The translations under genes and the position numbers were made by a program. 64,000 nucleotides of DNA from an uncultured Acidobacteriota bacterium (GTDB taxonomy: Bacteria; Acidobacteriota; JAQAZP01), in assembly GCA_963836075.1 (NCBI GenBank), contig CAWIIB010000009.1, forward strand, positions 1,024,001-1,088,000, read 5' to 3'. Below are positions 32,870 to 52,997 of this stretch, piece by piece. Every line of letters starts with the position of its first letter. Positions within the stretch are counted from its first letter, which is position 1. The notes beneath the pieces are model-generated. The model made no database searches and was not told the DNA's origin. It worked only from the letters and a program-made list of their open reading frames with translations.

Positions 32870-34753
32870 TTACTGTCCCAACCCGGTCTCTGTCGGCGGC
32901 AGGTGGCCGGCCTCGAGAAAGGCCGGCAGCCCCATCAGCACGCCCCAGGAGTGGAAGCGGTCGCTGGAGAGCCGCGGGTCGTCGCCCCGGCCGCTGATCG
33001 AGGAGTAGTTTTCGCTGACATAGCCCATGCGCCGCCACTCGTCCATGAACAGCGCCAGTGACTTTTCCGCCAGCTGTTTCTGCACCTCATCCATCCCGGC
33101 CTCCCGCAGCCCGAGATAGACCAGGAAGTTCAGCGGCGGCCAGATGGCGCCCTTCCAGTAGCGCTGCTTCTGGAAAGAGGGGTCGCTGCGGGCGATGGAG
33201 GGGATCACGTAGTCGCCCCAGAACTCGGCCGGGTTGAGCAGGTGGTCCTGCACCATGCGTCGTGCCCGCTTGTCATCCGGCACGCCGGCCAGCAGGGGGT
33301 AGAAGAGGGTGGGGGACAGACGGTTCGAGAACTCGCCGTTGTCACTCCGCCGGTTGAGGTAGAGGCCGGTCTCCTCGTCCCACAGCCGTTCCATTGCCGT
33401 TGAAAATCGATTGGCTCTTTCGGTCAGTTCTCGCTGTTCGTCCGTGCGGCCGAGGATGGCCGCCATCTCGGCCAGGGCCCGGCAGTCGGCGATGTGCAGG
33501 CTGGTCAGACCCACGTCCTGCAGCAGGAGGATGCCCCGCTCCTTGTCAAAGGGCACGCCCTCGTACATCGGCGAGTCGTCCATCCCCGACTCCCAGCGGG
33601 CGGCCACTTCACTGTTGGCGTAGGGTTCGCCGCAGGGGTTCGCTGTCTGGTGCGAGCCGTAGCTGAGCAGGCCGTCGTTCAGACGCCGCTCGCTGTACCA
33701 GCGGTTCCAGCGCAGCAGCGGCGGGAAAACCGTCTCCAGGAACCAGCGCTCGGGCCAGCGGCGATAGAGCTCGCGCACCATGATTCCGCCCACCGGCGGC
33801 TGGGAGCGGTCCCAGGACTTGCAGCCGTTGCCCCGGTTGTCGTTGGGGATGAAGCCCTCGTCGGTGATGCCCCGCAGATGCTCCACGGCATTGGCCAGGG
33901 CCAGGTCGCGGCCGAAGAGCGAGCAGCCGTAGGCGAGGAAGAAGTTGTCCCAGCCAAAGAGGCAGTAGCCGCCGTACTCCTCGTTCCACAGCCGGCCCAC
34001 GGTGGAGACCACCCGCTGGTGCTTTGGCTCGTAGATGGTGTTCCAGGCCAGGCCGGACTTGATGGCCAGCCAGGCCTGGGCCAGCTCGCCGAAGGCCTCG
34101 GCTTCTTTTTGCAGGGCGGCCTGCTGCTTCCCGACAATAGCTGTGATTTCCTGCACCGTGCGCGCTCGTCCGGTGGAGATGCCCAGCGGGCCGTCCAGGC
34201 GGTGGACCAGGTAGGGCGTCGGGGCGTCGATGTACGGGTCGGGGGCGTGGGTTCCGGTGGTGAAGATCGTGATCTCGCGCTCGGGGAGCTTTGCCTGAAG
34301 CGTGCCCTCAGCAAGGCTGATCTGTCCTGGCCGGTTCCAGAGCATGGCCGACTGGACGACGAGGTCCACCGGTTTCTCCGGCGTCTCCAGCGGGGTGACC
34401 AGCACCACCAGGTCGATCCCCTCGCGGGCCGTCTCCACCCGGGCGGCCAGATGCTGCCAGCGGATCTCCAGCGAGCTGTAGCGCCCGTCCAGGGCGTGCA
34501 GGCCGGGGATGATCTCTTCCGCGCCCTCGTCCCGCCGGCCGATCAGCGCTTCCCGCAGGTAGCGCTCGTCGATCCAGTCCCGCTGCTTGAAGGAGAGGTT
34601 TACTGCCAGCCCCTCGGGGAGCAGGACCTGGGAGAGGACGCTGCGGGTGTTCCAGTGGTTCCAGCCGCTGGCCAGCCGGGCCTGGATGGCGCTGTACTCG
34701 TCCTGCTCTTGCTCTGCGGCCCAGCCGGTGGCGGGGGCGAGCAGCAGGAACAA
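32870..34753 (-). CDS. GH63/MGH1-like (alpha/alpha)6 glycoside hydrolase, probably secreted; true start may be ATG 34834 with a frameshifted signal peptide
   Basis: FGWD, RSQPP, ESGMDDSP (acid Asp), YWKGAIW, ENY (base Glu); residual signal peptide LLLAPATGWA. Confidence 0.8.
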   Translation of the reverse strand: MFLLLAPATGWAAEQEQDEYSAIQARLASGWNHWNTRSVLSQVLLPEGLAVNLSFKQRDWIDERYLREALIGRRDEGAEEIIPGLHALDGRYSSLEIRWQHLAARVETAREGIDLVVLVTPLETPEKPVDLVVQSAMLWNRPGQISLAEGTLQAKLPEREITIFTTGTHAPDPYIDAPTPYLVHRLDGPLGISTGRARTVQEITAIVGKQQAALQKEAEAFGELAQAWLAIKSGLAWNTIYEPKHQRVVSTVGRLWNEEYGGYCLFGWDNFFLAYGCSLFGRDLALANAVEHLRGITDEGFIPNDNRGNGCKSWDRSQPPVGGIMVRELYRRWPERWFLETVFPPLLRWNRWYSERRLNDGLLSYGSHQTANPCGEPYANSEVAARWESGMDDSPMYEGVPFDKERGILLLQDVGLTSLHIADCRALAEMAAILGRTDEQRELTERANRFSTAMERLWDEETGLYLNRRSDNGEFSNRLSPTLFYPLLAGVPDDKRARRMVQDHLLNPAEFWGDYVIPSIARSDPSFQKQRYWKGAIWPPLNFLVYLGLREAGMDEVQKQLAEKSLALFMDEWRRMGYVSENYSSISGRGDDPRLSSDRFHSWGVLMGLPAFLEAGHLPPTETGLGQ

Positions 34754-34830
34754 AAATCAATATCGTTGACAGAGAGATGCCACGTCGCAGGCTGCGCCTG
34801 CTCCTCGCGGTGACATTTTTGGCAACCGGC

Positions 34831-50642: not shown

Positions 50643-52997
50643 ACGAACGGGTAGCACGACTGAGACAGGCCAGCCTCGACGCCCGGCCGAGTATCACGGC
50701 CGAACGGGCCCGGCTGGTGACCTGGTATTACCGGCACGCCGACCTCCGCTCGCCGGTGATGCACCGCGCCCTGGCCTTCAGCCACCTGATGCATCAGAAG
50801 GCGGTCTGGATCGGCGAGGACGAGCTGCTCGTGGGGGAGCGGGGCCCGGCGCCCAAGGCCACGCCCACCTACCCCGAGGTCTGCTGCCACACCCTCGAGG
50901 ACCTGGAGACGCTGCACAGCCGGGAGAAGACCTCCTACGAGGTGGATGAAGAGACGAGGCGGATTTACGCCGAGGAGATAATCCCCTTCTGGCAGGGCCG
51001 GACGCTCCGCGAGCGGATCCTCGGCGAGATGTCCAAACCGTGGCTCGACGCGTACCAGTGCGGCATCTTCACCGAGTTCATGGAACAGCGCGCGCCGGGG
51101 CACACCGTGGCCGACCACAAGATCTACCACGACGGGTTTCTGGGCTTTGTCTCCCGCATCGACCAGCGGCTGCGGGGCCTCGATTTTCTCGGTGACCCGC
51201 GGGCCCTGGCCCGCCGGCAGCAGCTCACCGCCATGCGCATCTGCGCCGAGGCGATCATCCTCTTCGCCCGCCGACACGCCGAGAAGGCGCTGGAGCTGGC
51301 CGCCGCCGAGGAGGACCCGCAGCGCCGCTCCGAGCTGGAGCTGATCGCCAGGGTTTGCGAGCGCGTGCCGGCCCACGCCCCGGCCGACTTCCGGGAGGCG
51401 CTCCAGGCTTACTGGTTCGCACACCTCGGGGTGATCAGCGAGCTGAACCCCTGGGACGCCTTCAACCCCGGCCGCCTGGACCAGCACCTGCTGCCGTTCT
51501 ACCGCGACGGGCTGCGCAACGGCACGCTCACCGAGGAGTCGGCCCGCGAGCTGCTGCAGTGCTTCTGGATCAAGTTCAACAACCAGCCGGCCCCACCCAA
51601 GGTGGGGGTCACCGCGGCGGAGAGCGGCACCTACACCGACTTTGCCAACATCAACGTCGGCGGCCTGCGCCCCGACGGCTCGGACGGGGTCAACGAGGTC
51701 TCCTTCCTGCTGCTCGACGTGATCGACGAGATGCGGCTGCTGCAGCCCAGCTCGAACATCCAGCTCTCGCGCAAGAACCCCGAGCCGTTCCTCCGCCGGG
51801 CCTGCTCCATCGTGCGCAAGGGCTGGGGCCAACCCTCGATGTTCAACGCCGACGCGGTGGTGTCCGAACTGGTGGGGCAGGGCAAGTCGGTGGAGGACGC
51901 CCGCTGCGGCGGCACCAGCGGCTGTGTCGAGGCCGGGGCCTTCGGCAAGGAGGCCTACATCCTCACCGGCTACTTCAACCTGCCCAAGGTGCTGGAGATC
52001 ACCTTCAACAACGGCCGGGACCCGCAGACCGGCAAGGCCATCGGCCTGGCCACCGGCGACCCGGCGGAGTGCGAAGAACATGGAGGAACTGCTCGACGCC
52101 TTCCGGCGCCAGCTGCAGCACTTCGTCGAGGTCAAGATCACCGGCAACAACATCATCGAGCGGCTCTACGCCGAAGAGATGCCGGCCCCCTTCCTCTCGC
52201 TGCTCATCGACGACTGCATCGACAAGGGGATGGACTACAACGACGGCGGCGCCCGCTACAACACCAGCTACATCCAGGGCGTGGGATTGGGGACGATCAC
52301 CGACAGCCTTTCAGCCATCGCCCACCACGTCTTCGGCGAGAAGACGGTGACCATGAAGGAGTTGCTGGCCGCGCTGGCCGCCGACTTCGAGGGCCGCGAG
52401 CCGCTGCGGCTCAAACTGCGCAACAAGTCGCCGCGCTACGGCAACGACGACGACCGCGCCGACGACATCATGCGCCGGGTTTTCGAGCTCTACCACCAGG
52501 CCATCGACGGGCGGCCCAACACCCGCGGCGGGGAGTACCGCATCAACCTCCTGCCCACCACCTGCCACATCTACTTCGGCCAGGTCACCGGCGCCACCCC
52601 CGAGGGGCGGCATGCCGGCACGCCGCTCTCCGAGGGCATCTCCCCGGTGCAGGGGGCGGACCGCAAGGGCCCCACCGCGGTGCTCCGCTCGGCGGCCAAG
52701 ATGGACCACCTGCGCACCGGCGGCACCCTGCTCAACCAGAAGTTCACGCCCCAGCTCCTCGAAGGCGAGGAGGGGATCGGCAGCCTGGCCGCCCTGGTGC
52801 GCACCTACTTCAAGCTCGACGGCCACCACCTGCAGTTCAACGTGGTCAGTGCCGGGACCCTGCGCCAGGCCCAGGCCGACCCCGAGGCGCACCGTGACCT
52901 GATCGTCCGCGTGGCCGGGTACAGCGACTACTTCTGCGACCTGAGCAAGGCCCTGCAGGACGAGATCATCCAGCGCACCGAGCACGAAGCGATGTAA
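50639..52997 (+). CDS. hypD: trans-4-hydroxy-L-proline dehydratase (glycyl radical enzyme); one frameshift near 52072
   Basis: FTEFMEQRAPGH, WDAF, ESGTYTDF, SGCVE, YILTGY, LPTTCH and RVAGYS match recalled HypD active-site motifs. Confidence 0.85.

Follow-up and report, generated by a model that had tools for sequence, protein, structure and literature searches.

How a microbe might dismantle the sugar-bearing hydroxylysine residues of collagen, the most abundant animal protein, is the question raised by a 20-kb stretch in the genome of an uncultured Acidobacteriota bacterium. To our knowledge, the catabolic route for the glucosyl-galactosyl disaccharide that collagen carries on hydroxylysine (Hyl) is known in animals only, through PGGHG, HYKK and PHYKPL. 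In the literature searched, no route by which microbes break down hydroxylysine or its glycosides was found, nor any paper with both 'hydroxyproline dehydratase' and 'hydroxylysine'. The window analyzed here, 64,000 nucleotides of DNA (contig C9:1024001-1088000 of the source genome G000, a 6.2-Mb assembly in 10 contigs), encodes a three-domain fusion of an APH-type kinase, an M23 peptidase and a class III enzyme dependent on pyridoxal phosphate (PLP). This fusion stands in an operon with two glycosidases and a galactokinase, beside a divergent Na+/sugar symporter. An earlier reading made from the letters alone, hereafter the sequence-only reading, had joined this operon to a neighboring hydroxyproline dehydratase as one system for both collagen modifications. 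The stretch instead divides into two modules, A and B. Module A is tentatively read, with a confidence that falls a little short of even, as an operon for glycosylated 5-hydroxylysine, that is, glucosyl-alpha1,2-galactosyl-beta-O-hydroxylysine (Glc-alpha1,2-Gal-beta-O-Hyl) and galactosyl-hydroxylysine (Gal-Hyl), derived from collagen or collagen-like glycopeptides.

Genes were called with Pfam and NCBIfam profiles, junctions were read directly from the window sequence, and signal peptides were judged by eye. Two congeners, G001 and G002, were available for comparison, for a total of three genomes in the genus including G000. Every gene named in the sequence-only reading is present, and each was borne out by the profiles:

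32870-34753, minus strand: GH63-like/MGH1-like hydrolase (glycoside hydrolase family 63-like), a putative exported inverting alpha-glucosidase of clan GH-G (Pfam PF22422, PF03200)
34831-37892, minus strand: tri-domain fusion of APH, Peptidase_M23 and Aminotran_3, cytoplasmic (NF004799, PRK06148), with frame breaks near 35470 and at 35030-35067
37889-39052, minus strand: galactokinase, ATGA-coupled to the fusion (NF003705)
39055-42369, minus strand: LacZ-type GH2 beta-galactosidase, predicted to be exported (Glyco_hydro_2_N, TIM barrel, LacZ_4, Bgal_small_N)
42471-44013, plus strand: SGLT-type Na+/sugar symporter of the SSF family, divergent (PF00474), with one frame break near 42820
44221-46923, minus strand: TonB-dependent receptor 1, module B (CarboxypepD_reg, plug, barrel), frame-broken
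47038-49384, minus strand: TonB-dependent receptor 2, module B (signal peptide, plug, barrel), frame-broken
49629-50642, plus strand: glycyl-radical enzyme activase, module B (TIGR02494)
50639-52997, plus strand: trans-4-hydroxy-L-proline dehydratase HypD, module B (NF043068), with one frame break near 52070

The co-oriented genes are spaced as had been claimed, with a 2-bp gap and ATGA overlaps. The GH2 stop codon (TGA, 39057-39055) is separated by 2 bp from the GTG start of galK at 39052, galK and the fusion overlap by ATGA at 37892-37889, and 77 bp lie between the fusion stop and the start of the GH63-like gene. The divergent GH2 and symporter starts are 101 bp apart, and in module B the activase and hypD overlap by ATGA at 50639-50642. 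A scan for promoters and terminators found sites no commoner than in shuffled sequence (2 vs. 2.1; 15 vs. 9.8 +/- 2.6), and a terminator-like site stands directly after the symporter gene. As assembled, the fusion is spread over three frames, the GH2 gene over at least four, and the symporter, both TonB receptors and HypD over two to three each. These frameshifts are assembly errors, as discussed below, and the genes are treated as intact in the organism.

At the center of module A is the fusion, in which Pfam found all three domains in the order APH, Peptidase_M23, Aminotran_3. Residues 1-809 match NF004799 with 871 bits and cover positions 1-804 of the 1015 in this profile. The tail, which lies in another frame, adds 61.5 bits, and the middle frame supplies the rest of the profile; no single frame reaches the cut-off of 1128 bits because the assembly breaks the gene. 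Among solved structures, the PLP domain is closest to human ETNPPL (6tor, 484 bits) and an Arthrobacter phospholyase (5g4i, 295 bits), and the next class III group follows at 184 bits. The PLP lysine lies in the motif GKPIGNGHP in the middle frame and is invariant in eight of eight aligned sequences. Judged by these sequence affinities, the domain clearly belongs with the class III phospho-lyases and not with the transaminases, racemases or decarboxylases, in agreement with the assignment made in the sequence-only reading. The kinase domain was recognized by Pfam as APH (72.5 bits), and the 120 matches listed from a search of a 5.8-billion protein set with this domain are environmental proteins without exception, with generic names or none. 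Between the two lies the M23 domain (window 36150-36842, minus strand; PF01551, 59 bits), for which the window protein retains HLGID and HLH, corresponding to HxxxD and HxH. Because the zinc and catalytic residues H445, D449, H500, H536 and H538 (G002 numbering) are invariant in eight of eight sequences, the M23 domain inside this cytoplasmic fusion looks active. It is absent from two-domain relatives of the APH-Aminotran_3 (APH-AT3) type, such as that of the Planctomycetota genome G692.

The glycosidases beside the fusion differ in how closely they resemble characterized enzymes. The GH63-like protein matches PF22422 with 186 bits and PF03200 with 51.9 bits (cut-off 22.4), and the NCBIfam equivalogs are far under their cut-offs. 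It was filed as GH63-like rather than GH63 because its best solved relatives, TTHA0978 of Thermus and YgjK, reach only 63 and 31 bits. Its motifs WESGMDD and SENY align with D501 and E727 of YgjK, and the corresponding acid/base residues D392 and E581 are invariant in six of six aligned homologs. D501 and E727 are reported as the catalytic residues of YgjK, and clan GH-G is described as comprising inverting alpha-glucosidases (PMC13671375). For the GH2 enzyme, all four LacZ-type domains are present across the frames, with 348 bits for the TIM barrel and 535 and 154 bits for LacZ equivalogs on fragments, and the broken gene was mapped onto its intact G002 ortholog. Signal peptides had been claimed for both glycosidases. 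That of GH2 was seen in the window, and for the GH63-like protein the claim holds in five of five inspected orthologs (G002, G064, G046, G031 and G343), with only the hydrophobic core of the peptide visible in the window.

Galactokinase exceeds the cut-off of NF003705 (414.3 vs. 385 bits) and matches PF10509 with 72.6 bits, and a galT-like gene is located elsewhere in G000. The SGLT-type symporter of the sequence-only reading was confirmed by PF00474 and by its solved relatives, the closest to the G002 ortholog being Vibrio vSGLT (2xq2/3dh4, 374 bits over the full length), ahead of human SGLT1/2 at about 230-239 bits. Its match to NF007790 (300 bits) is under the cut-off of 401.

The 20-kb stretch is two modules: module A, with the GH63-like gene, the fusion, galK, GH2 and the divergent symporter, and module B, with the two TonB receptors, the activase and HypD. 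The sequence-only reading's view of the stretch as one system did not survive comparison within the genus, where the modules are adjacent in G000 only and each is conserved separately. Module A is complete and in the same order in G002, where a TetR gene and a NorB-like gene follow the symporter instead of module B. Module B is syntenic in G001, on another contig and with different flanks, with hypD DNA 89% alike. A single conserved 20-kb locus was therefore rejected. The identification of hypD with its activase, on the other hand, was upheld by the coupling of the two genes, the glycine-radical domain (PF01228 Gly_radical, 126 bits) and the match to NF043068 (cut-off 1100), to which one frame contributes 750.3 bits and a second 526.6. 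The orthologs in G001 (1286 bits), G029 and G031 are above this cut-off. The activase scores 347 bits with TIGR02494 (cut-off 174) and 342 bits with the activase model specific to T4HPD, under the cut-off of 425.

Two FG-GAP/VCBS-repeat proteins (window 29615-33008, plus strand) lie between YfhO and the GH63-like gene. The pair is kept in G002. G001 lacks it, and there YfhO directly adjoins the fusion.

How these parts might work together can be laid out as a route. In the periplasm, the exported GH63-like enzyme would remove the alpha-glucose, and the exported LacZ-type GH2 would remove the beta-galactose. The vSGLT-like symporter would import the hexose, and GalK would feed galactose into the Leloir pathway. 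Free hydroxylysine, or a short Hyl-peptide perhaps trimmed by the M23 domain, would reach the cytoplasm, where the kinase domain of the fusion may phosphorylate the 5-hydroxyl group and the PLP domain may eliminate phosphate and ammonia to yield 2-aminoadipate semialdehyde. This product would be oxidized by a piperideine-6-carboxylate (P6C) dehydrogenase that is encoded elsewhere in G000 (759 bits, over the cut-off of 730). Module B would then be a separate, separately conserved unit for 4-hydroxyproline, drawing on the same ecological source as module A. Every substrate in this scheme is inferred, from gene identities, operon structure, phospho-lyase affinity, catalytic residues and recurrent neighborhoods that were observed directly.

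The closest precedent for the fusion is the vertebrate pair HYKK (AGPHD1) and PHYKPL (AGXT2L2), in which an APH-fold kinase is likewise followed by a class III PLP phospho-lyase. Veiga-da-Cunha and colleagues reportedly identified HYKK and PHYKPL in 2012 with bacterial fusions as a clue. By analogy with this pair, 2-aminoadipate semialdehyde is the product expected here, and the P6C dehydrogenase that adjoins the fusion in three loci from two phyla (L049, L083 and L105; 776-781 bits against the cut-off of 730) fits this product. Unlike the vertebrate enzymes, the kinase and phospho-lyase-type domains are fused here, mostly with an M23 domain in between, and share their operon with glycosidases, galK and a symporter. 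ETNPPL and the phospholyase of Arthrobacter aurescens, to which the PLP domain is closest among solved sequences, differ in being stand-alone enzymes that act on phosphoethanolamine, with no kinase or M23 domain and no sugar genes alongside.

For the sugar-removing steps, the GH63-like protein shares the inverting (alpha/alpha)6-barrel alpha-glucosidase type of animal PGGHG (GH65), GH63 alpha-glucosidase I and Escherichia coli YgjK, the last of which accommodates Glc-alpha1,2-Gal. Unlike these, the window protein is not GH65 and is only distantly GH63-like. PGGHG is reported to cleave Glc-alpha1,2-Gal-Hyl (PMC8626586), and GH63 glucosidase I to cleave alpha-1,2-glucose (PMC13671375). Module A also resembles the glycan utilization operons that combine lacZ, galK and an SGLT-type symporter, in that an exported glycosidase, a Na+/sugar symporter and a galactokinase occur together; a plain glycan locus of this kind is found in G031. 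It departs from them in that an amino-acid-type kinase/phospho-lyase lies within the operon, its translation coupled to that of galK. Module B, with its HypD equivalog match, glycine-radical domain and ATGA-coupled activase, recalls HypD and its activase in gut Clostridia, but here the pair belongs to a sediment lineage of Acidobacteriota and has two TonB receptors at its side, and in other lineages it is clustered with the fusion.

The wider family of the fusion shows which of these associations recur. In contigs from one genome per species, at least 593 relatives were found, and the neighborhoods examined were those of the best 80 loci from genomes, 80 from metagenomes and a further 22 and 10. 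The metagenome scan, which gave the second sample of 80, does not extend the test of the operon inside the genus, as its best match is only 62% identical. The groups represented among the best 80 genome loci include Acidobacteriota, Chloroflexota, Gemmatimonadota, Desulfobacterales, Planctomycetota, Latescibacterota and Thorarchaeota. A match to the fusion occurs in 89 of 401 Acidobacteriota genomes (51 judged full-length from the table) and in 22 of 301 Planctomycetota (8 full-length).

Several of the genes expected around the fusion return in lineages independent of G000. The pairing of galK with the fusion is kept in all three genomes of the genus. In a Rhodothermales metagenome-assembled genome (MAG; L089), GalK, a gene of the DHDPS family, the fusion and an Xaa-Pro peptidase occur together, and G692 combines an SSF symporter (35% identity), its APH-AT3 fusion and a GalK-like gene. 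Glycosidases recur as well, with an MGH1/GH63-like gene 0.6 kb downstream of the fusion in L196, a GH2 gene 1 kb upstream in L193 (both from metagenomes), a GH63-like gene directly upstream in G035, and a GH15/TREH_N enzyme upstream in G207, where a P6C dehydrogenase lies 5.7 kb off and a 350-aa open reading frame (ORF) between the GH15-like gene and the fusion has no solved relative. Two of these identifications, GalK-like in G692 and GH63-like in G035, were made by tblastn only. In three deltaproteobacterial MAGs (L050:3685-13063, L060 and L061), one co-directional cluster comprises an activase gene, HypD, a GntR regulator, one gene each of the OCD and proline-racemase families, and the fusion. 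The best model for the racemase-family protein is trans-3-hydroxyproline dehydratase, and the OCD- and racemase-family genes look like a pyrroline-2-carboxylate (Pyr2C) reductase and a trans-3-hydroxyproline dehydratase, both under the cut-offs. Further, G029 has a prolidase-HypD-activase group some 9-13 kb away from its fusion, and in G132 an APH-AT3 gene has OPT and CstA peptide transporters divergent to it and HypD at a distance of 9.5 kb. Among the five aldehyde dehydrogenases that adjoin the fusion, three are P6C dehydrogenases over the cut-off, and none best matched an acetaldehyde dehydrogenase model. The linkage anticipated by the sequence-only reading is found in part: galK, GH63-like, GH15-like or GH2 genes, and HypD recur beside the fusion in independent lineages, but GH2 and GH63-like genes appear in none of the best 80 genome loci.

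The largest neighbor clusters of the family are a Ser/Thr kinase, TopA, DprA and XerC, together with a zincin that accompanies a secreted repeat protein. In a large clade of soil Acidobacteriota, two genes precede the fusion. One encodes a DUF4953/DUF5117 Met-zincin (8 of 80 loci from genomes, 18 of 80 from metagenomes), the other a secreted protein that is rich in Pro, contains NGPI(T/S) repeats and has no Pfam or NCBIfam match (9 of 80 and 21 of 80, respectively). Examples are L041:8580-9830, L057:5923-8658 and L173-L218 (metagenome). Both proteins were considered as parts of the pathway and set aside as lineage synteny.

For the rare but recurrent neighborhoods with sugar, P6C dehydrogenase and hydroxyproline genes, the most economical account is that the substrate of the kinase/phospho-lyase would be an amino-acid-type amino alcohol, often galactosylated and glucosylated, that occurs alongside hydroxyproline, a description that 5-hydroxylysine from collagen-like glycopeptides fits. 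Whole-genome counts, made throughout in the 401 Acidobacteriota, place HypD in 37 of the 89 genomes with the fusion, against 45 of the 312 without it, and GH63-like homologs in 19 of 89 against 20 of 312. The 37 that carry both genes, fusion and HypD, belong to 16 families, by a hand count from family labels. The link between GH63-like homologs and HypD (30 of 39 GH63-like-positive vs. 52 of 362 GH63-like-negative genomes) is strong, and is confounded by kinship and lifestyle.

If the broader reading is true, prokaryotes would have their hydroxylysine (or Hyl-peptide) kinase/phospho-lyase in the APH-M23-phospho-lyase family. In this lineage it would be wired to exported glycosidases, galK and a symporter as the first microbial pathway for Glc-Gal-hydroxylysine, and the fusion, GH63-like enzyme and HypD would together mark an anaerobic sediment guild that scavenges modified residues specific to collagen. 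This generalization is possible, though rather doubtful. It would give a function to a large family still named 'hypothetical protein' in NCBIfam and, in sediments and soils, add a step yielding nitrogen and carbon to the breakdown of protein by anaerobes. Candidates for an alpha-1,2-glucosidase, a Gal-Hyl beta-galactosidase and a hydroxylysine kinase/lyase would also become available for collagen glycan analysis, and the reading is directly testable with four recombinant proteins. The overall interpretation of the sequence-only reading is partly supported: the phospho-lyase affinity and the recurrence of fitting neighbors speak for it, and the division of the locus and the lack of an enrichment of P6C dehydrogenase against it.

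A number of observations weigh against the assignment of module A to glycosylated hydroxylysine. Near the fusion in the best 80 genome loci, GalK was found only twice and HypD three times, and the fusion is mostly alone or in housekeeping synteny. G001 keeps only the galK-fusion pair, directly after the YfhO ortholog and without either glycosidase, and the GH63-like gene has no match anywhere in that genome (91% complete). P6C dehydrogenase is not enriched with the fusion (36 of 89 vs. 103 of 312 genomes, nominal p = 0.21), is present in 20 of the 51 genomes with a full-length fusion, and lies within 1.5 kb of one of the eight full-length fusions in Planctomycetota; a strict dependence of the fusion on this enzyme was rejected on the genome-level table. 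The co-occurrence contrasts themselves are inflated by kinship, since related genomes are not independent, and confounded by anaerobic lifestyle. The search of solved structures with the kinase domain returned a single match of 19 bits. No gene of collagenase type was found among the window proteins, and a Peptidase_M9 search of the genome gave no match, but neither did its control. Two U32 peptidase matches were set aside, as this family is ubiquitous.

A first alternative is that the modules are unrelated, with module A a general operon for beta-galactosides and alpha-glucosides from host or algal glycans, the fusion a passenger acting on another amino alcohol, and HypD nearby by chance. The GH2 (55%), GH63-like (62%) and symporter (61%) genes cluster in the fusion-free genome G031, of another family, where GalK-like, GH20 and melibiase-like genes accompany them. 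GH63-like orthologs lie beside a heparinase II/III-like gene in G046 and G064 and beside GH38 in G343, so that these neighborhoods, like that of G031, are general glycan contexts. Since the operon holds the only GalK-like match (E<=1e-30, with the L089 GalK as query) and the only LacZ-type GH2 match (PF02836, E<=1e-20) in the genome, it may be a general galactoside locus. Upstream, the window also holds a tandem pair of sulfatases and a hybrid two-component regulator (8751-11970 and 20193-24524, both minus strand), the regulator with Reg_prop, Y_Y_Y, HisKA, receiver and AraC HTH domains, a kind of context met with at glycan-utilization loci. The solitary state of most fusions and the adjacency of A and B in G000 only point in the same direction. 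On the other side, the ATGA coupling of galK to the fusion is kept in all three congeners, even where the glycosidases are missing, and GalK adjacency recurs in the Rhodothermales MAG and in the Planctomycetota genome, the latter also with a symporter. Alpha-glucosidase-type barrels or GH2 enzymes recur beside the fusion in G035, G207, L196 and L193. For single-copy genes, repeats of these kinds are far above chance, for which a rough estimate, not a computed test, gives fewer than 0.1 in about 190 loci. Unrelated modules appear somewhat unlikely.

A second alternative keeps the operon together and changes the amine. The fusion would degrade ethanolamine (by phosphoethanolamine phospho-lyase chemistry), 1-amino-2-propanol or another amino alcohol, and the operon would recover amino alcohols that are glycosylated or come from lipid head groups, in place of hydroxylysine. 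Phosphoethanolamine phospho-lyases are the two solved enzymes that the PLP domain matches best, P6C dehydrogenase is absent (E<=1e-180) from 53 of the 89 fusion-bearing Acidobacteriota, and an APH-type aminopropanol kinase is paired with a class III phospho-lyase in a mycobacterial microcompartment. The types of aldehyde dehydrogenase that adjoin the fusion, three in five for P6C and none for acetaldehyde, run counter to such a substrate. Because hydroxyproline genes, a prolidase and peptide transporters are among the neighbors, protein-derived amino acids are the source suggested for the amine, and no ethanolamine permease or microcompartment genes were seen among the family-scanned neighbor proteins, in which no systematic search for them was made. 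A different amine is considered improbable, and 5-hydroxylysine, tentative as it is, is retained as the substrate proposed for module A.

The last alternative is that the locus is decayed and its frameshifts are real. At least ten frame breaks occur across the 20 kb, as might be expected of pseudogenes, but relative to the G002 orthologs they are mostly single extra bases in the window, and those orthologs are intact, with one ORF each for the fusion (1018 aa) and GH2 (1101 aa). The extra bases at 35025/26, 35467, 41284/91, 41395/406 and 41712 are missing from short-read contigs of three to four studies (freshwater sediment, salt marsh and marine sediment), some pieces of which are at least 99% alike to the window. 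Because these contigs lack the extra bases and the essential rpoB of the same assembly (G000:C9:2605973-2609810) is also split over two frames near the 3' end, the breaks are attributed to assembly errors, and the pseudogene reading was rejected as highly implausible. The indel errors are genome-wide, and polishing is needed before any gene-level claim is made.

Elsewhere in the window, a homolog of the prokaryotic pentameric ligand-gated ion channels (Neur_chan_LBD and Neur_chan_memb) is encoded at 16376-17503 on the minus strand. Following HypD, a transporter of the AspT/YidE/YbjL type with TrkA_C domains is found at 53785-55734 on the plus strand. As the DNA 3' of HypD in G001 matches G000 sequence beyond the end of the window, the approximately 12 kb after HypD that include this transporter stretch appear to be an insertion relative to G001.

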